From an uncultured Candidatus Melainabacteria bacterium (lineage in GTDB: Bacteria > Cyanobacteriota > Vampirovibrionia > Gastranaerophilales > Gastranaerophilaceae): a stretch of DNA of 64,000 nt. Location of the stretch: contig CAKUZI010000004.1 in NCBI GenBank assembly GCA_934717855.1, forward strand, positions 43,973 to 107,972, in the 5' to 3' direction. Under the pieces are notes generated by a model. It searched no databases, was not told where the DNA came from, and saw only the letters and a list, made by a program, of their open reading frames with translations. The position numbers and the translations under genes are program-made. Positions 11,782 to 59,493 of the stretch are shown here, piece after piece. The stretch's first letter is position 1. Every line of letters begins with the position of its first letter.

Positions 11782-11904
11782 TCCTCTCTCCAAGGGGAAG
11801 TTAGAGAATTTCATAAAAACAATTAATTAACCCCTCTCCCGAATTCGTAATACTCACCGTTGTTCGTAAACGACTTTGACCTCTTCCCTTGGAGAGGTGA
11901 AATC
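11782..11904. repeat. MITE-like palindromic element, copy 1 (about 123 bp), followed by a further partial terminal repeat to about 11950
   Basis: About 90% identical to 51626..51757. Terminal inverted motifs TCCTCTCTCCAAGGGGAAG / CTTCCCTTGGAGAGGTG. Internal AACCCCTCTCCCGAATTCG. Confidence 0.7.
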
Positions 11905-12250
11905 GGCCTAAAGTCCTCTCTCCAAGGGAGAGAGCTAGAGAGAGGGGTATAAAAAACCTAAAAACACAGATCGCGCAACTCAAAATTTCAATTTGACAAT
12001 TAATGATTTATTTTCATCTTCCGTGCGCGATGACAATATGTATTCTGGATGATTTATTAATCGCCGTTGGAATGGATTGGTTTAGCTTGACATTCTTTTA
12101 ATCTTATCCTACCCTAGTAGCATAGAGGAAATGGAGTGAACATCTTCAACTGCTGGCGCAGCCGTAATAGTCGGAATGCTCAAAACGAATTCGTTTACGC
12201 TCAGATTGAACGAAATTCTTTTAGAGCCTCTTGTAAAAGAGGACTTTTTT

Positions 12251-16265: not shown

Positions 16266-17261
16266 ATGAGTTTTCAAGAAAAATATTTGTCGATTTTTGA
16301 GGTTGTTAAAGATGATGTAGAAAAAGTTAAGTCGTCTTTATTTGATGGAATTGAACTTGACAATTCATTGAAGTTTAAACTTTTTGATATTCTGAACGCT
16401 CCGTCTAAACATATTCGCGCGGTTTTAACTTTTTTGTATCTCAAAACTGCAGGCATGAAAATAGATGAAAAACAAATTATTTACCAATCTGCAATTGAAT
16501 TGGTGCATAATGCGTCGCTTATTCATGATGATGTGATTGATGAAAGTTCTGTAAGGCGTTCAGTTCAGACACTGAATTCAAAGTTTGGTAACAAACTTGC
16601 GGTAATTACCGGAGATTATCTTCTTTCTGTTGCACTAAAAAAAATTAGAACTTTAGAAAATTCGAAAATTATTGATATATTTGCTCAAACACTTGATGAT
16701 ATGTGTCAAGGAGAGATTAAACAAGATTTAAGCAGGTTTAAAATTCCTACAATTGAAGAATATTTAAAAAAAACAGAACTTAAAACAGCAAAACTATTCG
16801 AAACAGCGCTTTGTGGAAGTTTTTTATTATATGGGGCGGGTGGTAGCCCCCACCTCGAAATCAGAGATTTCGGTCCTCCCGCAAGGGGTGGACATGAAGT
16901 TTCAGAAGAAGAAATAGCTGGAACTCCCCTCGCCCCAACGGGGAGAGGGTGTCACGAAGTGATGGGTGAGGGGTTCTATTGCTCAAATGTTCAAGATTTT
17001 GCGCGTAATTTTGGAATAGCTTTTCAAATTCGCGACGATTTGATTAATGCAAAAACTTCTCAAAATGATGTTAAAGATGGTATTTACACGGCTCCTGTTA
17101 TTTTTGCTGGTTCTGTTGATGATTATGAAAATGGTATTGAAAAAACTCAAATTTTGTTAAATAATTACATAGAGAGTGCGCAAAAAGAGATTGAAAAATT
17201 TGAAGAGAGTAAGTATAAAACAGCACTTACAAATCTTTTAGGACTTATTAAAAATGAATAA
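16266..17261 (+). CDS. trans-polyprenyl diphosphate synthase (IspB/IspA family) carrying an in-frame repeat-derived insertion
   Basis: 331 aa. First DDxxD motif LIHDDVIDE. Second Asp-rich region FQIRDDLIN. About 47 extra GC-rich residues (GAGGSPHLEIRDFGPPARGGHEVSEEEIAGTPLAPTGRGCHEVMGEGFY) sit between the helices that normally precede the second motif. Confidence 0.8.
   Translation: MSFQEKYLSIFEVVKDDVEKVKSSLFDGIELDNSLKFKLFDILNAPSKHIRAVLTFLYLKTAGMKIDEKQIIYQSAIELVHNASLIHDDVIDESSVRRSVQTLNSKFGNKLAVITGDYLLSVALKKIRTLENSKIIDIFAQTLDDMCQGEIKQDLSRFKIPTIEEYLKKTELKTAKLFETALCGSFLLYGAGGSPHLEIRDFGPPARGGHEVSEEEIAGTPLAPTGRGCHEVMGEGFYCSNVQDFARNFGIAFQIRDDLINAKTSQNDVKDGIYTAPVIFAGSVDDYENGIEKTQILLNNYIESAQKEIEKFEESKYKTALTNLLGLIKNE
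16836..16978. repeat. GC-rich palindromic repeat (RPE/REP-like) lying inside the polyprenyl synthase CDS
   Basis: Hairpins CCCCCACCTCGAAATCAGAGATTTCGGTCCTCCC and CCCCTCGCCCCAACGGGGAGAGGG. The first 60 nt are about 90% identical to intergenic 51798..51858. Confidence 0.7.
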
Positions 17262-17904: not shown

Positions 17905-18110
17905 ATATTCAAATAGGGCAGATTTGAGTGAAAAGTGAGAAGTGAAACGTGAAAAAACCTTATCGTAAAACTATTACCCTTTCTCTTTGTGAGACAAAGG
18001 GAACCGCAGAGCTGTGGCGATGCGTGTGACCCTGTCCGCCTTGTGCCGAGGGAGCAGTTGTTCGTGAGCATCGGCGAACGTTACAAATTCGGGAGAGGGT
18101 TCCTGCTTTG
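17905..18110. repeat. composite GC-rich repeat region
   Basis: Contains the TGAAAAGTGAGAAGTGAAACGTGAAAA motif (inverse of 45420..45445), hairpin CCCTTTCTCTTTGTGAGACAAAGGG, and AATTCGGGAGAGGG (inverse of the MITE core at 11838). Local GC is far above the genome average. Confidence 0.5.
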
Positions 18111-18674: not shown

Positions 18675-19403
18675 ATGAAAAAAGAGGTAAAAAGAGTTGT
18701 CGGGGGGGGGGGCAATCGCGTTGGTAAATTAGCCTTTACGTTGGCAGAGGTTTTGTTAACTCTTGGTATTATTGGGGTTGTGGTGGTTTTGACAATTTTT
18801 GCGCTTGTTGGAAAATATTCTGATATGCAAAAGTCAGTTGCGTTAAAGAAAGCTTATACTAATTTAAGTCAAGCAATATTGATGTCTCAGCAAGAACATG
18901 GAGAACTTGCTGATTGGGATAGAGCTCCTTATCATCGTAAAGGAATGCTTGAATGGTCTAATGAGTATATTTTTAAATATATGAAAAAAGTTACTGCTTG
19001 TGAAGGTGGAAATAGTGCTATAAAATGTCCGACTGACGCTGATAGAATTTGCAATGCAGAAAATAAAAATTGCAATTCGGTTACTCTTAGGATGGCTGTA
19101 TATGTGCTTGCAGATGGCGAGAATATATATATTTTTAGTGGTGGAAATCCTGTTGCAGGAAAAAGTGATTTTTTACATATCTTAGTTGATACAAATGGGG
19201 TTAAAAAGCCGAATGTGTTTGGGAAAGATGTGTTTGTTTTTACTCTTTGGTTGAATGATAGAGCAGGAAAGCCTTTAAAAAGTTGGGGGTGTACATCGAG
19301 CAGAGATATGGCTCTTACATGTTGTAAAAATAGCTCAGAAAAATGCGCTGGTTTGTTAGAATTGGATAACTGGGAATTTAAAAAAGATTATCCTTGGCGA
19401 TAA
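18675..19403 (+). CDS. prepilin-type N-terminal cleavage/methylation domain protein (type IV pilin-like / pseudopilin) with a G11 tract in the leader-peptide codons
   Basis: 242 aa. Leader MKKEVKRVVGGGGNRVGKLA, then FTLAEVLLTLGIIGVVVV (Glu at +5). GGAGGG RBS. Homopolymer G11 at 18702..18712 encodes GGGG. Confidence 0.7.
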   Translation: MKKEVKRVVGGGGNRVGKLAFTLAEVLLTLGIIGVVVVLTIFALVGKYSDMQKSVALKKAYTNLSQAILMSQQEHGELADWDRAPYHRKGMLEWSNEYIFKYMKKVTACEGGNSAIKCPTDADRICNAENKNCNSVTLRMAVYVLADGENIYIFSGGNPVAGKSDFLHILVDTNGVKKPNVFGKDVFVFTLWLNDRAGKPLKSWGCTSSRDMALTCCKNSSEKCAGLLELDNWEFKKDYPWR

Positions 19404-20022: not shown

Positions 20023-20117
20023 GTGTAGTGCGCCGCGTGAGCTTTGGGCGAGCCAAAAATAGGAAAAGTTTTGTTTTCATATAAAAGCGAGCAGCAACAG
20101 AGCGAACCCAGCACGAA
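20023..20117. repeat. intergenic repeat (rpmJ-rpsM spacer), copy 1
   Basis: GTGCGCCGCGTGAGCTTTGGGCGAGCC ... AGCAACAGAGCGAACCCAGCACGAAG. Shared with 21197..21310. Confidence 0.65.
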
Positions 20118-20302
20118 GTAACACGAAGCATAGTGAACGGAAATTTTCGGAGAAAATGCAGTGAACGACAGCGTAGTGTGAAACAAAAATTAATTCAATT
20201 AGTAAAAGAGCCCGAAACTACGGGGCTAGACAGTGGTTGGTGAGGAAGTATTTAACCCTCATACACAAAAAAATCTAACAACAAGAAAGGAAAATTAAAA
20301 CA

Positions 20303-21201: not shown

Positions 21202-21310
21202 TGGATTTTGGCGAGTGCGCCGTGTGAGCTTAGGCGAGCCGAGTATAGGAAAAGTATTTTAACTTATTTAGGTGAGCAACAACAAAGCGAACCCAGCACG
21301 ACCTCACGAG
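21197..21310. repeat. intergenic repeat (rpsK-rpsD spacer), copy 2; begins at the rpsK stop codon
   Basis: GAGTGCGCCGTGTGAGCTTAGGCGAGCC ... GAGCAACAACAAAGCGAACCCAGCACGA. About 85% identical to copy 1. Confidence 0.65.
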
Positions 21311-34751: not shown

Positions 34752-37580
34752 ATGGCAAACGAAACAGGAACAAAAAAAGAGTACAAAGATACTTTAAATT
34801 TGCCTCAAACAACTCTTGCTATGAGAGCAAATGCAACAGTTAGAGAATTAGAAATTCAAAAATTTTGGGAAGAACACGATATTTATAACAAAATTATTAA
34901 CAATCGTGACAAAGCAAATAAATTTATTTTGCACGACGGCCCTCCATATTTGAGTTCTGAAAAAATTCACGTTGGTACTGCTTTGAACAAAATTCTTAAA
35001 GATATTTTGTTGAAATATAAAGCTCAAGCAGGGTTCTATACTCCGTATGTCCCGGGGTATGATGGGCATGGTTTGCCAATTGAAAATAAAGTTGTAAAAA
35101 ATATAAAAGGCGGAAGAAGCGCAGTAACTCCTTATGAGTTGCGTCAAAAATGTCGTGAATATGCTCATAACAGTTTAAAAGGTCAAGAAAGCGAGTTTAA
35201 ACGTCTTGGCGTTTTGGGTGACTGGGAAAACCCTTATTTGACTATTAAACCAGAATTCGAAGCTGAGCAAGTTAGAGTTTTTGGGGATATGTACAAAAAA
35301 GGTTATATTGAAAAAGGTTTGAAACCTGTTTATTGGTGCGCATCTTGCGAAACTGCTCTTGCAGAAGCAGAAGTTGAATACGCTGATGTTACATCAACTT
35401 CTATTTATGTAAGATTTAAGTTTGATGAAGAAAGTACTGAGAAAATTCAAAAGTTATTGAACAATTCACTACTCACTACTCACCATTCACCAGTATACGC
35501 CATCATTTGGACAACAACACCTTGGACAATTCCATCAAATATGGCAATCAGTATGCACCCTAAATTTGAATATACTTTCTTTGAATACAAAGGTGACGTT
35601 TATGTTGTTGCTCAAGGCTTGTTGGCAAGCTTCTTGGCTGACGTTGAATGGGATGAAAAAGATATTAAAGTCCTTGGTTCTTGTGTAGGACAAGACTTAG
35701 AACTTTTAACAACTCAACATCCGCTTGTAGATAGAAAATCTCCAATTATTTTAGGAGAACACGTAACGCTTGATGCAGGTACCGGTTCTGTTCATACAGC
35801 TCCAGGACACGGTCTTGAAGACTATGAAGTCGGTTGTAAATATGGTATTGAAGTATTTTCACCACTTGATAGTAAAGGTGTTTGGACTGATATCGTTAAA
35901 GATCCTGATTTGATAGGATTACCTTATTATAAAGGAAATTCTGTAGTAATCGAAAAACTTAAAAATTGTGGCGCTTTGTTAAAAGCTCAAGATATAAACC
36001 ACAGTTATCCGCACTGTTGGAGATGTAAAAATCCTGTAATTTACAGAGCTACACCTCAATGGTTTGTAAAAGTAGATAAATTCAGAGATCAAGCATTGGA
36101 AGCTATCAAGGGTGTAAAATGGATTCCTGCTGGCGGTGAAGCAAGAATTTCAAACATGGTTGCAGGTCGTACAGACTGGTGTATTTCCCGTCAAAGAGCT
36201 TGGGGCGTACCAATTCCGGTGTTCTACTGCGAAGATTGCGGAGAGGTTATTGTTACTGACGAAACAGTTGAAAATGTTGCAAAAATCTTTGAAAAAGAAA
36301 GTTCTGACGCTTGGGTAAAATATTCTGCAGAAGAATTGTTGCCTCAAGGATTTAAATGCCCTAAATGTGGTAAAACTCATTTCAAAAAAGAAAATGACAT
36401 TATGGATGTTTGGTTTGATTCAGGTGTAACATGGCGTGCAGTAGTTGAAAATCGTTCAGACGTTTTGGGGCATACTCCTGTTGAAATGTATTTGGAAGGT
36501 TCTGACCAACACAGAGGTTGGTTCCAATCATCACTTTTGACAAGTGTTGCTGTTCAAGGAAAAGCTCCTTACAAATCAGTTTTAACACATGGGTTTGTAT
36601 TTGGTGAAGATGGCCGAAAAATGTCAAAATCATTAGGCAACTACATCAGACCAGACGAAATTATTAAAACATATGGTGCAGATATTTTGAGATTGTGGGC
36701 TGCTTCTGTTGACTATAGAAACGATACAAAAATCGGTAACAACATTATTAAACAGCTTGCTGAAATCTTTAAGAAAACTAGAAATACTTCAAGATTTTTA
36801 CTTGGAAACTTGTTTGACTTTGATCCAAAAGTTGATTATGTACAGTATAATGATTTGAAAGCTATTGACAAATTTGCGTTACACAAGCTTAATCAGCTTA
36901 TTGCAAATGTAACTGAAGCTTTTGATAATTATGAATTCTATAAATATTTCCAACAGCTTCAAAATTTTGCAGCAGTTGATTTGAGCTCATTCTATCTTGA
37001 TATTGTAAAAGACAGATTGTACACGGCAGGTAAAAAATCGCTTTCACGTAGAGCTTGTCAAACTGTTTTGTATGAAACATTGCAAACTCTTGTAAGAATG
37101 CTTGTTCCTGTAATGCCTCACCAAGCTGAAGATATTTGGGCTAGCGTTCCGGAATGTCAAAAAGACGGATTGGAAAGTATTTTGCTCTCTGATTGGGTTA
37201 AAGTTAATCCAGAATGGAACAACGAACAATTAGAAAACGATTTCACGCAAATATTGAAAACTCGTGAAGTTGTCACTCGTGCAATTGAACCTCTTAGAGC
37301 TGAAAAACAAGTCGGAAGTTCTTTAGAAGTTGCTGTGTTTGTAAAATCTGACAACGCAGAAATTTTGAAAGCTAACGAAGATGAGTTATGTAATATATTT
37401 ATTACATCACAAGCACATGTAGTTGATGAAAAACCTGCAAATGTCTTGAATGAACATTCCGAAGAGGGCTATACTGTTTGGGTTACAAAAGCAGAGGGTG
37501 AAAAATGTGCTCGTTGCTGGAAATACAGAAAACTAAATGCCGACGGAATTTGTGAAGAATGTGCAGAGGCTATTAAATAG
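34752..37580 (+). CDS. ileS: isoleucine--tRNA ligase
   Basis: 942 aa. TLNLPQTTLAMRAN. HDGPPYLSSEKIHVGTALNKILKD (HIGH-type). KMSKSLGN. C-terminal Zn finger CARCWKYRK..CEECAEAIK. Confidence 0.95.
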   Translation: MANETGTKKEYKDTLNLPQTTLAMRANATVRELEIQKFWEEHDIYNKIINNRDKANKFILHDGPPYLSSEKIHVGTALNKILKDILLKYKAQAGFYTPYVPGYDGHGLPIENKVVKNIKGGRSAVTPYELRQKCREYAHNSLKGQESEFKRLGVLGDWENPYLTIKPEFEAEQVRVFGDMYKKGYIEKGLKPVYWCASCETALAEAEVEYADVTSTSIYVRFKFDEESTEKIQKLLNNSLLTTHHSPVYAIIWTTTPWTIPSNMAISMHPKFEYTFFEYKGDVYVVAQGLLASFLADVEWDEKDIKVLGSCVGQDLELLTTQHPLVDRKSPIILGEHVTLDAGTGSVHTAPGHGLEDYEVGCKYGIEVFSPLDSKGVWTDIVKDPDLIGLPYYKGNSVVIEKLKNCGALLKAQDINHSYPHCWRCKNPVIYRATPQWFVKVDKFRDQALEAIKGVKWIPAGGEARISNMVAGRTDWCISRQRAWGVPIPVFYCEDCGEVIVTDETVENVAKIFEKESSDAWVKYSAEELLPQGFKCPKCGKTHFKKENDIMDVWFDSGVTWRAVVENRSDVLGHTPVEMYLEGSDQHRGWFQSSLLTSVAVQGKAPYKSVLTHGFVFGEDGRKMSKSLGNYIRPDEIIKTYGADILRLWAASVDYRNDTKIGNNIIKQLAEIFKKTRNTSRFLLGNLFDFDPKVDYVQYNDLKAIDKFALHKLNQLIANVTEAFDNYEFYKYFQQLQNFAAVDLSSFYLDIVKDRLYTAGKKSLSRRACQTVLYETLQTLVRMLVPVMPHQAEDIWASVPECQKDGLESILLSDWVKVNPEWNNEQLENDFTQILKTREVVTRAIEPLRAEKQVGSSLEVAVFVKSDNAEILKANEDELCNIFITSQAHVVDEKPANVLNEHSEEGYTVWVTKAEGEKCARCWKYRKLNADGICEECAEAIK
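35461..35493. repeat. repeat-family fragment lying in frame inside ileS
   Basis: ACAATTCACTACTCACTACTCACCATTCACC matches the intergenic CACAATTCACTACTCAC / CACTATTCACCATTCACTAT family at 40860..40896 and 41846..41862. It encodes the low-complexity peptide NSLLTTHHSP. Confidence 0.45.
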
Positions 37581-39619: not shown

Positions 39620-40162
39620 TAACCCCTCTCTGAAATTTGTAAATTCGCCTGTCTATTAAATGATAAAGACAGTCTCATTAACAAATTTCTTCTCTCCCCA
39701 AAGGGCGAGATTAGAGAACATTTAACCTTATTTCTTCTAATACATTTTCTATATTATTGTTTATTTTGTTATTATAAACTCTAATAATTCTATAGCCTTG
39801 TTCTTTGAGAAATTTATCTCTTATTTCATCGTGCTGAGTTTGTTTTTCTTCAAGATGCCCTGAACCATCTAGTTCAATAATTAAATTCTTTTCTTTGCAA
39901 ACAAAATCTACAATATAATTTCCTATTGGTGCTTGTCGACGAAACTTAAGCCCCATAAATCTTCTAGCTCTTAAATTAAACCAAAGTTTTTGTTCAAATA
40001 TTGTCATATCTGAACGTAGTTCTTTTGCTTTTTGTAATGAAAAATTTGTATAATTGTGATTAGCTTTCTGCATAAATAAAGTATAACATAATCTCGCCCT
40101 TTGGGGAGAGAAGAAATTTCTTAGCGAATTTGAATGAGCTTAGGAATTTTAGAGAGGGGTTA
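39620..40162. mobile_element. small cassette carrying a DUF559 endonuclease gene, bounded by nested inverted repeats
   Basis: Outer IR TAACCCCTCTCTGAAATT (39620..39637) vs its reverse complement at 40145..40162, 17/18 matching. Inner 32-bp IR AAATTTCTTCTCTCCCCAAAGGGCGAGATTAG (39683..39714) vs 40089..40120, perfect. The cassette fills the convergent spacer between the paralog B stop and the rdgB stop. Confidence 0.6.
39711..40073 (-). CDS. DUF559 (Vsr-like / PD-(D/E)xK) endonuclease domain protein
   Basis: 120 aa. IFEQKLWFNLRARRFMGLKFRRQAPIGNYIVDFVCKEKNLIIELDGSGH...RVY is typical of DUF559. Confidence 0.7.
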   Translation of the reverse strand: MQKANHNYTNFSLQKAKELRSDMTIFEQKLWFNLRARRFMGLKFRRQAPIGNYIVDFVCKEKNLIIELDGSGHLEEKQTQHDEIRDKFLKEQGYRIIRVYNNKINNNIENVLEEIRLNVL

Positions 40163-40759: not shown

Positions 40760-40782
40760 TGGAACTCCTTTGTTTTTTATAG

Positions 40783-40896
40783 TGAATAGTGAGTAGTGAA
40801 TAGTGCTTATAGCTCGCTTTGCTCGAAAAATAAATTTGGCGTAAGCCCGTAAAGGTCTACTCACTATTTCACAATTCACCATTCACTATAAAAACT
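40783..40896. repeat. palindromic 'AGTGAATAG-family' intergenic element (rdgB-uppS spacer)
   Basis: AGTGAATAGTGAGTAGTGAATAGTG...TTGGCGTAAGCCCGTAAAGGTCTACTCACTATTTCACAATTCACCATTCACTAT. Arms are mutually inverted. Matches 46851..46960. Confidence 0.7.
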
Positions 40897-40900
40897 AAAA

Positions 40901-41776: not shown

Positions 41777-41991
41777 TTTTAATATTTTACATACAAAAAA
41801 ATTTTGGCGTGCTAATTATTGTAATGGTCTAGTCACTATTCACAATTCACTACTCACTTCCCCAAAATATGAACTTTGCTTAACCTCTCTTTTCAAATTA
41901 TTTACAAAAAAACTTGTTCATGTGATAATAATTGTTGAAAGCTAAAAATATAATAGCGAATGTACACAATATAAAAAAGGAAAAAACAAAA

Positions 41992-44629: not shown

Positions 44630-45355
44630 ATGATTATGAGATTAACAAATGAGAGAGCTGGATTTACACTCGCTGAGGTTTTGATTACTTTGGGTATTAT
44701 TGGGGTAGTTGCAGCAATGACTATGCCAACATTGATGAACCAAACAAACGGTGCACAGTACAAAGCAGCTTACAAAAAAGCGTTGTCTGCAATTTCTCAA
44801 GGTGTAACTTTGAACGTTGCTCTAGATGACGCTAGTTTTGCAGATGCTGTTGCTGGTGATGCTGGTAAAACTGACAAACCAACATCAGGTGATTCTGTAG
44901 CAAGTATTTTGGGGGCAAGAATGAACGTTGTTAAAGCTGCAAGTACCGCAGCAGAGGGTGGATATTCTTCTTTCCCTGGAACTTTAGGCACTGTAACAAC
45001 ATGTAAAGAAGCAGGTAAAAAACCAGGTGATGACGGTTGTACACAACAAACCACAAATGTAGTTCCTGATACATACTTATTCTTTAATGATGGCTCAATG
45101 TTTGCCTATAAAGCAGTTGATGCTGTAGCTTGTTCTAAAGATGGTAATGTTGATGGTGGTAAAGTTTGTGTCGGTGTAATCGATGTAAACGGTGCAAAAG
45201 GTCCAAACAAAGTTGTACAATGTGATAATGGAACTGGGACTGATTCTAAACCGTGTACAGCCGGTAATCCTACAGATATATACCCTGTTGAGTTTTATGA
45301 CCAAACAATTTTGCCAGCTTCAGCTGCTGCAAGAGCTGTATTGTATGGCAAGTAG
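44630..45355 (+). CDS. prepilin-type N-terminal cleavage/methylation domain protein (pseudopilin)
   Basis: Leader MIMRLTNERAG, then FTLAEVLITLGIIGVVAAMTMPTLM. GAAAGGTGG RBS. Gly/Thr-rich, Cys-containing C-terminal domain. Confidence 0.7.
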   Translation: MIMRLTNERAGFTLAEVLITLGIIGVVAAMTMPTLMNQTNGAQYKAAYKKALSAISQGVTLNVALDDASFADAVAGDAGKTDKPTSGDSVASILGARMNVVKAASTAAEGGYSSFPGTLGTVTTCKEAGKKPGDDGCTQQTTNVVPDTYLFFNDGSMFAYKAVDAVACSKDGNVDGGKVCVGVIDVNGAKGPNKVVQCDNGTGTDSKPCTAGNPTDIYPVEFYDQTILPASAAARAVLYGK

Positions 45356-45473
45356 AAATTTGATGTGAAGAGTAAGTGGGTTTGAATATAAATTTTGTGC
45401 GTAAGCACTGAAAAGGACTATTCACTTCTCACGTTTCACTTTTCACTCAATAAAACAAATCGAATCTTTTTGT

Positions 45474-45686: not shown

Positions 45687-46847
45687 ATGAAGAAAAATAT
45701 TATAATATTTTTGTCGGTAATTATTGCGGCAATTTTGATTAGATATGGTTTTTCAATGTTCGGAACAATTATGCAAGGAAAGGCGATGAAAAACAAGCCT
45801 GCTCCGTCTGTTACGGTTCAAGAAGTTGAAACAAAAAACGTTATTAGAAGTTTTGAAGCTCCGGGGCGTGTAGTTTCTAAATATAGAGTTGACGTAATGG
45901 CACGTATTTCCGGATATCTTTTGAAAAGTTATTTTAAAGAGGGCGATTATGTTAAGGCCGGTCAAGTTTTATTCCAAATTGAGCCGAATGAATATTCAAA
46001 TGCTTCTAGCGTAGCATCTGCAAATGTTAAAAATTTAAAAGCTCAACTCGTATATGCAGAAAAACAATTGGCACGTGCTTCTGAACTTGTGAAAAAGGAT
46101 TATATTGCAAAAGCACAATATGACCAAATTTTGTCTCAAAGAGATGCTTTGAGAGCTCAATTGGCTTCTGCGCAGGCTTCTTTAAATGATGCGAATAGAA
46201 ATCTTGGTTATACTAGAGTAAAATCACCGGTAAATGGTAAAGTTGGTATAATTAATGTAACAGTCGGAAACTATGTTTCTCCAACTTCAGGAGCTTTAAC
46301 GACAATTAACAGTACAAATCCGATTTATGTTACTTTCCCTATTGAATCTGCTGATTTTCAGGCACTTGCTGTTGCTGACAAATCAAATAACAAAAACAGA
46401 AAAGTTGAACTTATAATGAACGGTGGAGTTAAGTATGCAAAACTTGGTGTTCAAGATTTTCAAGACAACAAAGTTGACCAAACTACCGGCACAGTAACAA
46501 TGAGAGCTACTTTTGATAATCCGAATAATGAACTTATTCATGGGGAATTCGTAACAGTAAAATTGTATTCAAATAATCCTGTAGAAGTTCCTGTTGCACC
46601 GATTACAGCTGTTTTGGAAAACCAAGCAGGAAAATATGTTTATAAATTAGATGAAAAAAATCTTCCTCAGCTTGTTTATGTAAAAACAGGGGAGCAAAAT
46701 GGTGATAATTGGATAATCAAAGAGGGATTGCAAAAGGGAGACAGAATTGTTACAGAGGGGCTTCAAAAAGTAATTCCTGGAAAACCTGTGACAATCGTGA
46801 CTGCAGACGAGATGAAGAAAATTAAAAATGGAAAAGAAAGTGAGTAG
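45687..46847 (+). CDS. RND efflux periplasmic adaptor (membrane fusion protein, AcrA/HlyD-like)
   Basis: 386 aa. N-terminal anchor, coiled-coil hairpin (QLVYAEKQLARASELVKKDYIAKAQYDQ), beta-barrel and MP domains. Confidence 0.85.
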   Translation: MKKNIIIFLSVIIAAILIRYGFSMFGTIMQGKAMKNKPAPSVTVQEVETKNVIRSFEAPGRVVSKYRVDVMARISGYLLKSYFKEGDYVKAGQVLFQIEPNEYSNASSVASANVKNLKAQLVYAEKQLARASELVKKDYIAKAQYDQILSQRDALRAQLASAQASLNDANRNLGYTRVKSPVNGKVGIINVTVGNYVSPTSGALTTINSTNPIYVTFPIESADFQALAVADKSNNKNRKVELIMNGGVKYAKLGVQDFQDNKVDQTTGTVTMRATFDNPNNELIHGEFVTVKLYSNNPVEVPVAPITAVLENQAGKYVYKLDEKNLPQLVYVKTGEQNGDNWIIKEGLQKGDRIVTEGLQKVIPGKPVTIVTADEMKKIKNGKESE

Positions 46848-46850
46848 AGG

Positions 46851-46960
46851 CTAGTGAGTAGTGAATGGTACTTATCGTTCGCTTCGCTCAAAAAATATTT
46901 GGCGTAAGCCCATAATGGCCTACTCACTATTCACCATTCACTATTCACTTCTTAAAACCA
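46851..46960. repeat. palindromic 'AGTGAATAG-family' element in the acrA-acrB spacer
   Basis: GTGAGTAGTGAATGGTACTTATCG...TTGGCGTAAGCCCATAATGGCCTACTCACTATTCACCATTCACTATTCAC. About 85% identical to 40783..40896. Confidence 0.7.
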
Positions 46961-46973
46961 AAAAGGATCTAAA

Positions 46974-51625: not shown

Positions 51626-51757
51626 TCCTCTCTTCTAGGGGAAGTTAGAAAAATGGATTTATTTTATAAAAACAATTAATTAACCCCTCTCCCGAATTCG
51701 TAATACTCACTGTTGTTCGCAAACGACTTCGACCTCTTCCCTCGGAGAGGTGAAATC
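51626..51757. repeat. MITE-like palindromic element, copy 2 (about 132 bp)
   Basis: Aligns with 11782..11904, with a 9-nt indel and a few substitutions. Confidence 0.7.
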
Positions 51758-51797
51758 TATCGAAATATTTTATTTAAAAAAACTATTACTATTATTT

Positions 51798-51858
51798 TCC
51801 CCCACCTCGAAATCAAAGATTTCGGTCCTCCCTCAAGTGGAGGACATGGAGTAACAAA
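51798..51858. repeat. intergenic copy of the GC-rich palindromic repeat also found inside the ispB-like CDS
   Basis: CCCCCACCTCGAAATCAAAGATTTCGGTCCTCCCTCAAGTGGAGGACATGGAG vs 16847..16907. Confidence 0.65.
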
Positions 51859-51928
51859 CATTTTTGTTTGTCATTCTGAGCGATTAGCGAAGAATCTCAA
51901 AGTAAGAGGAACATGTTTTTACATTAAT

Positions 51929-58662: not shown

Positions 58663-59493
58663 TTGCAAAATACAATATTGTATATTATGATATACAATAT
58701 GATAAATAAATTGATTAATAATGATTTTGTTTTGACGGAAGATATTGTACGGGGAACTTACTGCAATAATTTCCGTAAATCAGGTTTTACTTTAGCAGAG
58801 GTGTTAATTACTTTAGGTATAATAGGAGTTGTTGCTTCTTTGGTTTTACCTACGTTAATTGAAAAATTTAAGGACAAAGTTTATATTACACAAACTAAAA
58901 AGACTTATTCTACTGTACAGACAGTATTCAATCAATGGATGTATGACAAAGGTTGTCTTGATTATGCCTGCCTTTTTGAGCAATCTAAAACTCAGGCAGA
59001 ATTGTCTAGCGAATTTTTATCATATTTTAAGAGCGTAAAAACTTGTAAACTTTCTGTATCTGGTTGTTTAGCTGATAATATAAAATTACCTAAAGCAACT
59101 AATAATGGTCATGGAAAATTAGATGTAATGCATGGAAAAAATTGGTATAGTGCAATTTTAGCTGATGGTTCAGTAGTCGGAATATTCCCTTATGTTAATG
59201 GGGATGAAAATTGTGGACGAATTTTTGTTGACAGGCTAAGAGATGAAAATGGTAATTATATTTCTGATGGAAAGGGTGGGTACAAAACAAAAGAGACATA
59301 TTCAAAACAGTGTGGAGTTTTTTTGATTGATTCAAATGGTTTGAAAGGACCAAATCAGCTTGGCGCGGATGTATATACTTTTATTATTAATAATAAAAGT
59401 ATATTTAATTGGCATACAAAAATTGATACAGTATTGGTAGATGAAAAACTTGATTATATAAACTACAATCTAGATAATATAAAAGGTAATTAA
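58663..59493 (+). CDS. prepilin-type N-terminal cleavage/methylation domain protein (pseudopilin)
   Basis: ...FRKSG then FTLAEVLITLGIIGVVASLVLPTLI. The start among several upstream Met is uncertain. The 12-bp palindrome TACAATATTGTA sits at the start region. Confidence 0.65.
   Translation: MQNTILYIMIYNMINKLINNDFVLTEDIVRGTYCNNFRKSGFTLAEVLITLGIIGVVASLVLPTLIEKFKDKVYITQTKKTYSTVQTVFNQWMYDKGCLDYACLFEQSKTQAELSSEFLSYFKSVKTCKLSVSGCLADNIKLPKATNNGHGKLDVMHGKNWYSAILADGSVVGIFPYVNGDENCGRIFVDRLRDENGNYISDGKGGYKTKETYSKQCGVFLIDSNGLKGPNQLGADVYTFIINNKSIFNWHTKIDTVLVDEKLDYINYNLDNIKGN

Follow-up and report, generated by a model that had tools for sequence, protein, structure and literature searches.

The DNA analyzed here is a 64,000-nucleotide (nt) stretch (the window) from an uncultured gut Candidatus Melainabacteria bacterium of the family Gastranaerophilaceae (contig CAKUZI010000004.1), and our subject is a GC-rich block of palindromic repeats that lies in frame inside one of its genes. 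The gene (positions 16266 to 17261, plus strand) encodes a long-chain polyprenyl (solanesyl/octaprenyl-like) diphosphate synthase of 331 amino acids (aa), whose sole Pfam domain is the polyprenyl synthetase domain (PF00348; E = 5.9e-44). Its nearest curated models are the solanesyl, heptaprenyl, and octaprenyl diphosphate synthases, all matched under the equivalog cut-offs (the best NCBIfam match, solanesyl-PP synthase, included), and its relatives in the Protein Data Bank (PDB) are solanesyl/octaprenyl-PP synthases. The first Asp-rich motif is DDVID (aa 88 to 92); the second (aa 257 to 261; positions 17034 to 17048) reads DDLIN, not the canonical DDxxD, in this protein and in all 27 aligned orthologs. 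Between the two, ortholog alignment and GC content delimit an in-frame insertion of 141 nt, or 47 codons (16836 to 16976, plus strand; aa 191 to 237, AGGSPHLEIRDFGPPARGGHEVSEEEIAGTPLAPTGRGCHEVMGEGF), whose peptides include DFGPPAR and GGHEVSEEEIAGTPLAPTGR. It coincides with a GC island (16827 to 16979) with a GC fraction of 0.56 (0.52 to 0.56 for the inserted block), as against 0.334 for the window and 0.26 to 0.35 for the flanking gene body, and the open reading frame (ORF) remains stop-free across it. A first-pass annotation, made from the sequence alone, had claimed that an ispB-like coding sequence reads through such a block and thereby gains about 47 residues between the Asp-rich motifs; both statements held, aa 191 to 237 being absent from the orthologs of 283 to 284 aa. 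Signs of an intein or intron (splicing domains or an intron RNA family) were not found in the synthase ORF: Pfam returned PF00348 alone, and among the Rfam matches of the block there was no intron family and none that reached its gathering score.

The same annotation had described the block as two hairpins, whereas we resolved it into five or six small ones, belonging to two repeat units and a linking hairpin. Overall, two units of ~50 nt, which we term modules A and B, form an inverted doublet in the block. The core of module A (16847 to 16895; minus strand in the X-Y-G convention), delimited by the sharp borders of its dispersed copies, reads on the plus strand as a C-box (CCCCCACC), a hairpin Y (CGAAATC-AGA-GATTTCG), and a hairpin X (GTCCTCCC-GCAA-GGGGTGGAC). 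Module B (16926 to 16973, plus strand) consists of CCCCTCGCCCC-AAC-GGGGAGAGGG, a mini-hairpin (TGTCACGAAGTGAT), and a third block (GGGTGAGGGG); it was recognized by its blocks (see below) and by its occurrence alone in contig L004. The linking hairpin between them (AGTTTCAG...CTGGAACT; 16898 to 16925, plus strand) was seen in the predicted folds and arises because the long form of module A, which makes up its 5' part, runs on into AAGTTTCA; the string GGTGGACAT[G/A]AAGTTTCA[G/A]A is common to this hairpin and to solo copies in four other contigs (L015, L023, L037, and L060). Folded as DNA, the block reaches −30.5 kcal/mol (z = −3.2 against shuffles), and as RNA it reaches −72.1 kcal/mol (z = −4.2), the outermost pair of the RNA fold joining the C-rich 5' end to the G-rich 3' end. 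A strict hairpin scan of the window found 28 GC-rich hairpins, against 1 to 8 in shuffled sequences, and was too restrictive to serve as an inventory of units.

Module A is a dispersed repeat. Its core (CCCCCACCTCGAAATCAGAGATTTCGGTCCTCCC; 34 nt, at 16847) recurs once in the window with 1 mismatch (51799 to 51832), with 0 recurrences expected in 100 shuffles. The repeat search placed this intergenic copy at 51799 to 51852 on the minus strand, in a mosaic of other GC-rich units (51626 to 51900), and the alignment extends over 54 nt at 91% identity (16847 to 16900 versus 51799 to 51852); the second copy that the first-pass annotation had located near 51798 is thus a true copy. A scan with the exact core pattern in one genome per species gave 79 matches in 71 stretches, or 78 after removal of one match in a Gallionellaceae stretch (L071), which is a chance occurrence of the pattern, without hairpin X, inside a GC-rich gene. 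These copies come from roughly 25 Gastranaerophilales genomes, almost all of them Candidatus Gastranaerophilales/Melainabacteria metagenome-assembled genomes from gut and rumen, with ~17 copies in UBA4641 and ~9 each in MGYG-HGUT-04473 and Tb.RUG.531. They have sharp borders (CCCCACC ... GGAGGAC-AT) and unrelated flanks. The variable position of hairpin X forms a Watson-Crick pair in 51 of 60 unique copies (T-A in 38, G-C in 12, A-T in 1), so that 12 of these pairs represent a two-sided change from T-A to G-C. The module A consensus is free of stops in four of six frames and that of module B in three of six, and some of the ~78 copies are read in frame in other genes, where module A is translated in three different frames: as PHLEIRDFGPP in the synthase, as PTSKSKISVLP in an M14 peptidase (see below), and, from the other strand, as CPPLEGGPKSLISRWG in a PolyA_pol-family gene, in a membrane-type ORF of 460 aa that has no Pfam match, and again in the M14 insertion, in its right arm. 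Apparent in-ORF copies upstream of pilin-like genes probably lie in leader regions and were left uncounted.

We then compared the state of the loop among orthologs of varied length recovered by a search that covered 5.8 billion proteins. In the basal orthologs (283 to 284 aa), the conserved CGS motif is followed by a short loop, and the insert is absent from orthologs of 283 to 286 aa. The other states are (i) 47 aa, composed of module A, the linker, and module B (the window's protein and P0011); (ii) 28 aa, with an AT-shifted segment resembling A joined to the end of B (P0002 to P0010); (iii) 24 aa, B with a different left piece (P0013 to P0026); (iv) G/P-rich segments, unrelated to these, in distant lineages (P0030, P0033 to P0047, P0068, P0082, and P0100); and (v) an empty loop in close relatives (P0012, P0028, and P0032). 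Viewed as DNA, what the distant lineages carry at the loop is likewise built of GC-rich units of the X-(Y)-G type (e.g., in L159, CCCCTCTCCC-TCT-GGGAGAGGG, then a hairpin GCAGTTGT...ACAACTGC, and then GGGTGAGGG). Three contigs that are 97 to 98% identical outside the site differ at the loop, with B only in L004, no insert in L005, and A plus B in L006; likewise, the window (A plus B) and L002 (AT-shifted A with a deletion) are 97.3% identical. Because the basal orthologs and some near-identical strains lack the segment, it is both lineage and strain specific, as the first-pass annotation had expected, and no unrelated phylum was found to carry it in the synthase gene. Two other comparisons were set aside. 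The whole-locus comparison of indels between the window and L002, L004, and L005 gave fragmented gaps and was not used as evidence of mobility beyond the synthase gene, and an apparent second in-frame insertion in ribosomal protein S4 (L005, 14900 to 15628; 242 versus 200 aa) is due to an upstream TAG-to-TGG change that lengthens the ORF call.

The age of the insert can be gauged from the pair formed by the window and L006. The two synthase genes are 78% identical in nucleotide sequence, with a dS of about 1.0 (saturated) and a dN/dS of 0.145, while their inserts differ at 13 of 147 nt (5 synonymous and 8 nonsynonymous changes), with a dN/dS of about 0.47 and a dS of 0.158, a value to be read with the caveat that DNA or RNA structure may also hold back synonymous change. 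The insert therefore postdates the split of its hosts by a wide margin, and there is little constraint on its peptide. These values suggest that the sequence has spread horizontally, whether via recombination or by repeated insertion at one place.

In the protein, the insert is predicted to form a disordered loop. An AlphaFold2 model computed with the ortholog alignment has a mean pLDDT of 83, with most 10-residue blocks averaging >90, whereas residues 192 to 237 have a pLDDT of <50 and no secondary structure. They connect the predicted helix 163-191 to the helix 240-260, at whose C-terminal end D257 of the second Asp motif lies; D88 to D92 lie at the C-terminal end of the helix 68-91. In this model, the insert would be ~17 residues (roughly 25 Å of helix) away from the Asp motifs, at the opposite end of the helical bundle, consistent with the surface exposure that the first-pass annotation had proposed to check on a structure. 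Against a solanesyl-PP synthase of known structure (PDB code 9jv9), residues 9 to 185 and 238 to 283 align to chain positions 8 to 191 and 201 to 254, and 52 residues of our protein thus occupy the place of a 9-residue loop. The persistence of the insert would be explained by three properties: the units are stop-free in several frames, their total length is a multiple of three, and the loop lies at the bundle end away from the catalytic Asp motifs, so that the enzyme would gain only a disordered stretch of ~47 residues.

The architecture of the modules unifies them with a known family, the intrastrand triplex motif (TM) repeats (Hoyne et al. 2000; Holder et al. 2015, PMC4666352), whose Escherichia coli version, TMECO, has the consensus CCCTCGCCCC-TTT-GGGGAGAGGG-TTA-GGGTGAGGGG. 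This motif forms a purine-motif triplex in vitro, has been described as "always located intergenically" and as occupying hypervariable loci, and occurs at five sites as inverted doublets that always combine two subtypes (PMC4666352). The blocks CCCTCGCCCC, GGGGAGAGGG, and GGGTGAGGGG of module B are letter for letter those of TMECO type "A mm" (PMC4666352, Table 1), and module A, read on the minus strand (TCCACCCC, GGGAGGAC, and AGGTGGGGG), likewise has the three-block organization of TM repeats. In agreement with the published triplex scheme, positions with A in the purine block have T in the third block of both modules, and the modules share with the family their dispersal, GC richness, inverted two-subtype doublets, and variability of loci. 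The doublet in the gene, with A as C-Y-X and B as X-Y-G and the two belonging to different subtypes, matches the habit of the family to form heterologous inverted doublets. The differences are that the E. coli motif is intergenic, has loops of 1 to 6 nt, and has no reported enzyme, whereas the modules described here have a first loop of 3 to 4 nt and a second spacer of 14 nt (B) or 17 nt (A) that forms a small hairpin of its own, lie in frame inside genes, and flank genes for DUF559 proteins (see below). On these sequence criteria, we assign both modules to the TM family.

The first-pass annotation had likened the block to the Rickettsia palindromic elements (RPEs), reportedly described by Ogata et al. 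in 2000, with which, to our knowledge, no enzyme is known to be associated. The likeness stands as an analogy: RPEs are likewise palindromic repeats that enter genes in frame without destroying them, add a peptide in a surface loop, and also have intergenic copies (reviewed in PMC10969869). It does not stand as family membership, the units being of the TM family; they are also shorter (~50 nt), are far richer in GC than the host genome, reside in a gut Melainabacterium, and have a candidate partner enzyme, DUF559. With this correction, our analysis supports the reading of the block as an RPE-like in-frame selfish insertion, in this case of TM repeats. The REP/REPIN-RAYT system (PMC3116915) shares the occurrence of short palindromes as singlets and inverted doublets and of one small enzyme gene between inverted copies; it differs in that the gene flanked here encodes a DUF559 protein (PF04480) with the Vsr-like PD-(D/E)XK fold, not an HUH Y1 transposase, and in that the repeats have three blocks. 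The units also differ from miniature inverted-repeat transposable elements: the outer C-box and G-box are complementary, but we saw no target-site duplication on comparing filled with empty sites and found no transposase-bearing parent, DUF559 being the only gene found between such ends. A further parallel is provided by the mobile GC clusters and "byp" elements of yeast mitochondria, GC-rich palindromic units that invade AT-rich genomes, including coding sequence; these are organellar, and byps are skipped by the ribosome, whereas the frame here is simply open. Finally, whalefall-1 (RF01762), an orphan motif that Weinberg et al. (2010, PMC2864571) described from a whale-fall metagenome, its sole known source, and that was interpreted as a noncoding RNA, presents the same order of parts, with a GC hairpin (UCUCUCC-UUGG-GGAGAGA), a second hairpin, and then GGGUGAGGAC. 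It also matches the arms of DUF559 loci in L084 and L147 (2940 to 2992 and 3361 to 3413) with 25 to 33.5 bits (gathering score, 37), and this "RNA" may, as a lead only, be a DNA repeat of the module A kind.

The connection to DUF559 is visible in the window itself. At 39622 to 40156 (minus strand; inverted-repeat pair I3), an arm of the order C-box/Y/X, a DUF559 ORF of 120 aa (39711 to 40073, minus strand), and an arm of the order X/Y/G-box form a complete cassette whose inner 35-nt arms (39679 to 39713 and 40089 to 40123) are 97% complementary and nested in the outer C-box/G-box arms. The arms align over their length with three solo units of the window: one at 11812 to 11912 (plus strand), which is followed by an X-G unit (11914 to 11949); one at 51665 to 51765, whose repeat at 51661 to 51757 (plus strand) is 95% identical to 11808 to 11904; and one at 18030 to 18108 (minus strand), which was seen in the inverted-repeat pairs I2 and I4 and occupies the spacer that follows the signal-peptidase gene. 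In sister genomes, module A itself encloses such genes: in L017, L031, and L034 two inverted copies ~400 nt apart enclose an ORF, and the same layout occurs in L024, L026, L029, L050, and L069, where one arm was matched by the exact pattern. The enclosed ORF is a DUF559 protein (PF04480, E = 2.8e-34), which lies in frame inside a Peptidase_M14 gene (e.g., L017, 6420 to 7542) in at least eight genomes.

The M14 proteins fall into three length classes, namely (i) 212 to 220 aa, with an empty site (...EYLKKHTP|KNLLFIPC...); (ii) 230 to 252 aa, with stubs that keep the arm ends (PTSKS..ISRWG); and (iii) 365 to 412 aa, with full cassettes, which account for ~74 of the top 120 clusters and are called as single ORFs in independent pipelines. 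The frame of the left arm differs by lineage (L034 versus the others) while the overall frame is kept, which argues for selection on read-through. Stub and full alleles exist side by side in three lineages (P0244/P0264, P0198/P0196, and P0176/P0170), and L054 has a perfect 35-nt palindromic stub (CCCCCACCT-CGAAATCACAGATTTCG-AGGTGGGGG), as expected from a deletion between the palindromic Y hairpins of both arms. At this site the DUF559 core has been lost by deletion between the arms, leaving the stubs, and some right arms have received further nested inserts (P0170 and P0228). At the identical codon position of M14, P0253 (L162, 2001 to 3122) carries a different DUF559 with module-B-like arms, of which the left is CCCCTCTCCCC-AA-CCCTCTCCC-TCAA-GGGGCGAGGG and the right CCCTCGCCCC-TCGA-GGGAGAGGG-CTA-GGGAGAGGGGG.

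The association extends to environmental bacteria. With protein similarity as the sole criterion, we selected 80 environmental metagenome loci that encode DUF559 (locus GC, 33 to 69%; 77 testable genes), and positions shifted within the same loci served as controls (n = 238). Inverted repeats scoring at least 14 flank 39 of the 77 genes but only 1 of the controls (0.4%), and those scoring at least 18 flank 24 genes and none of the 238 controls. The GC-rich consensus of these arms is CCCTCCCC-TTGA-GGGGAGGG, a short spacer or small hairpin, and GGGKGRGGG(TGA); the arm of L135 carries the Y hairpin of module A (CGAAATCACAGATTTCG). The order differs in that the X hairpin is outermost in many environmental loci and the C-box/G-box in the Gastranaerophilales cassettes. 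DUF559 cassettes with inverted ends of this build are present in the window, in sister genomes, and across environmental bacteria, in many phyla. DUF559 proteins of unrelated bacteria often have terminal extensions such as PLPQPLSRKRARGEGG or SPSPSPVNGRGE that are translated arms. A covariance model built only from 39 of these environmental arms (R1), run over the window without filters, ranked first the X-G unit at 11914 to 11949 (plus strand; 23.9 bits, E = 2e-4) and second the intergenic module A (51796 to 51848, minus strand; E = 0.003 by a rough calibration); both modules of the synthase gene also came within its top five hits in the 64 kb, at marginal E-values (see below).

The model also connects to E. 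coli. In E. coli K-12, TMECO no. 9 lies 168 nt past the stop codon of the DUF559 gene ycjD in X-to-G orientation (NC_000913.3, 1351204 to 1351760; L164), and R1 matches it with 32.9 bits (E = 4e-8); at a density of 23 copies per 4.64 Mb, chance alone would put ~0.004 copies this near to ycjD. The gene is present in 3,378 of 5,426 complete E. coli genomes (absent from 38%), and an ST131 strain without ycjD is also without the adjoining TM. Between ycjD and the TM there is a partial duplicate of the ycjD 3' end, and a long perfect palindrome (CACCTCATTCTGACAA...TTGTCAGAATGAGGTG) lies upstream of ycjD. In published data, the annotation "DUF559 domain-containing protein" is overrepresented where recombining inverted repeats overlap genes (odds ratio, 14.3; PMC9881135), and the fold group of VSR and DUF559 proteins also includes a group I intron homing endonuclease (PMC3424549). 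In profile searches, the cassette DUF559 recovered a structural-genomics DUF559 structure (PDB code 3hrl; E = 1.9e-30) and weakly the homing endonuclease I-Bth0305I (PDB code 3r3p; E = 0.003); it differs from the latter's setting in that no intron or intein is present, in that hairpin/triplex repeats mark both ends of the cassette, and in that, in the M14 gene, translation of the host protein runs through the cassette in frame.

Taken together, the data show a dispersed family of structured repeats, insertion alleles that vary between strains, an insert younger than its gene, and in-frame persistence in a loop predicted to be disordered. We estimate a probability of roughly three in four that the block is an inverted doublet of two nonautonomous units of a selfish, GC-rich, hairpin/triplex-forming repeat family, lodged in the synthase loop. 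Each unit would contain a pyrimidine block together with the complementary purine block, optionally a small hairpin, and then a third block rich in G, and the doublet would have inserted into the part of the gene that encodes the inter-helix loop. As to the engine, it is about an even call, judged from sequence associations, whether the DUF559 nuclease recognizes or nicks the folded units and drives their copying in trans, which might proceed by repair or gene conversion or by a REP/RAYT-like reaction. Solo units and doublets would then be by-products, nonautonomous derivatives of DUF559 cassettes, and selection would spare only those insertions that are in frame, free of stops, and in tolerant loops. 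The widest version, to which we give just short of an even chance, is that TM repeats, and perhaps whalefall-1, are the ends and solo derivatives of a hitherto unrecognized, phylum-spanning class of selfish cassettes whose only gene is DUF559; such cassettes would live in frame in host genes, and therefore be expressed through the host's own translation, and would shed gene-less units into coding loops.

Several observations weigh against these interpretations. The arms of the window cassette belong to a subtype that is neither that of module A nor that of module B; these two also differ from each other in subtype, so that simple deletion within one cassette does not account for the doublet. 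A synthase allele with DUF559 was not found among the 120 best homologs of the synthase, nor among the relatives of the window DUF559, all of which are stand-alone proteins of 79 to 179 aa. Neither target-site duplications nor a shared target motif were apparent at the empty sites of the synthase loop and the M14 gene, and the repeated use of one loop could reflect selection for tolerated sites and not targeting. Holder et al. found no mobility genes (transposase or integrase) near E. coli TMs (PMC4666352), and ycjD has a TM on one side only. The R1 matches to both in-gene units, module B (rank 3; 16925 to 16975, plus strand; E = 0.08) and module A (rank 5; 16844 to 16896, minus strand; E = 0.25), are marginal even under the rough calibration, and all module A copies align over their full length to whalefall-1, at 21.3 to 26.5 bits, below the gathering score of 37.

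The foremost competing explanation dispenses with the enzyme: hairpin/triplex units would spread by causing replication stalling, template switching, and ectopic gene conversion, and DUF559 genes would merely reside in unstable spots. We regard this as unlikely, though it deserves to be taken seriously, given that TM loci are hypervariable among E. coli strains without a transposase or integrase nearby, that the empty sites show no target-site duplications, and that AT-shifted and fresh GC-rich alleles in 97%-identical backgrounds fit gene conversion. It leaves unexplained, however, the matched inverted arms at half of the environmental DUF559 genes, as opposed to 0.4% of controls, and the two different DUF559 cassettes at one M14 codon position. 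Less probable again is that the synthase gene once held a complete DUF559 cassette, from which a deletion between the arms removed the endonuclease ORF and left the doublet as a footprint. The order of the doublet, C-Y-X on the left and X-Y-G on the right, is indeed that of the Gastranaerophilales cassettes, and the M14 gene, with full cassettes and short stubs coexisting in three lineages and the perfect palindromic stub of L054, offers a precedent; but no DUF559-bearing synthase allele was found, the arms are of different subtypes, and a B-only allele exists. We also considered whether the linker (AAGAAGAAAT) might be a remnant of the "KEEII" codons of DUF559 and rejected this, since it is of low complexity and the tail of solo module A copies fits better.

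That the block acts as RNA, either as a structured element or as an embedded small RNA of the whalefall-1 type, and is not selfish DNA, we consider improbable. The strong RNA fold, the compensatory changes in hairpin X, and the full-length matches to whalefall-1 (16846 to 16895, minus strand, in the gene; 51796 to 51848 in the intergenic copy) speak for such a role; yet the matches are all sub-threshold, copies occur in both orientations relative to genes and in ORFs on either strand, and the covariation is equally expected of a DNA hairpin that is recognized as such. Even less credit goes to the view that the loop is an ancient functional addition to the enzyme, passed on by vertical descent and serving, for example, to bind a partner. 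Its attractions are that the frame is kept in all alleles, that the AT-shifted allele of P0002 retains a similar peptide pattern (xSHLxIxxFG..GGH), and that the 331-aa allele is common, its 90% identity cluster counting 47 member sequences from independent assemblies (331 aa in 14 of the 15 listed and 330 aa in one), some under the names "Clostridium sp. CAG:967" and "Candidatus Gastranaerophilaceae bacterium." Against it stand the empty alleles in 97%-identical backgrounds, a dS of the insert six-fold below that of the gene with a relaxed dN/dS, the predicted disorder, and the presence of the same DNA unit in intergenic DNA and in other genes in three reading frames. Finally, although the window stems from a metagenome assembly, an assembly or binning artefact is hardly conceivable, given that the identical 331-aa protein occurs in many independent assemblies (NCBI, ENA, and Logan) and that a second species-level lineage (L006) carries the same insert.

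The window also contains other repeats, a low-complexity tract, and prepilin-like genes. Beside the intergenic module A copy (51853 to 51900) there are a hairpin (ACAAACATTTTTGTTTGT) and a unit (GTCATTCTGAGCGATTAGCGAAGAATC) of another repeat family, and related "CATTCTGA" and "GGAGTGACGTGGTAATCC" units precede many module A copies of UBA4641, forming mosaic arrays like the bacterial interspersed mosaic elements (BIMEs) of E. coli. An AT-richer intergenic family with heptamer-like units containing TCAC/GTGA (e.g., TCACTATTCACAATTCACTACTCAC) occurs at 17924 to 17964, 35455 to 35493, 40769 to 40900, 41822 to 41860, 45410 to 45450, and 46845 to 46961, and similar arrays adjoin module A copies in L013, L043, L055, and L063. 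A GC-rich segment of ~100 nt (GTGCGCCGYGTGAGCT..GGCGAGCC ... GCGAGCARCAACARAGCGAACCCAGCACGA) is present in two copies, upstream of rpsM (S13; 20023 to 20126) and rpsD (S4; 21207 to 21310), the latter also in L004 and L005; these may be ribosomal-protein leader structures. Prepilin-like genes with FTLAEVLxTLGIIGVV N termini were found in the window at 18735 to 18796, 44663 to 44724, and 58786 to 58847, and in other genomes (L011, L019, L030, L041, and L075) module A copies often lie just upstream of such genes. A run of 11 G (18703 to 18713) in the ORF at 18675 to 19403 specifies four glycines (GGGG) in the leader peptide of a prepilin-like protein (MKKEVKRVVGGGGNRVGKLAFTLAEVL...) and is a candidate slipped-strand phase-variation tract.

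The TM repeat family and the in-frame colonization of genes by palindromic repeats are already known. The literature searched contained no account of a mobile DUF559 cassette and none of palindromic repeats in Melainabacteria; as far as this literature goes, what is new is the occurrence of TM-type units in coding sequence of a free-living gut lineage with a full allelic series, their use as the systematic inverted ends of DUF559 cassettes, including one in frame in a peptidase, and a candidate answer to how TM repeats move. In-frame palindromic repeats in essential genes have so far been seen as a curiosity of Rickettsia-like intracellular bacteria. The host here is a gut Melainabacterium and not an obligate intracellular organism, and its fresh, decayed, and empty alleles provide a natural series on how proteins absorb random loops. 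The literature on TM repeats has left their mode of spread open, and DUF559, including YcjD of E. coli, is a concrete candidate enzyme; therefore, the question can be tested in a model organism. If the reading of the cassettes is true, DUF559, a large family of "unknown function," would acquire one as the nuclease of a selfish cassette bounded by hairpin/triplex repeats, and being translated, at times, within a host protein would set this cassette apart from the usual strategies of mobile elements.

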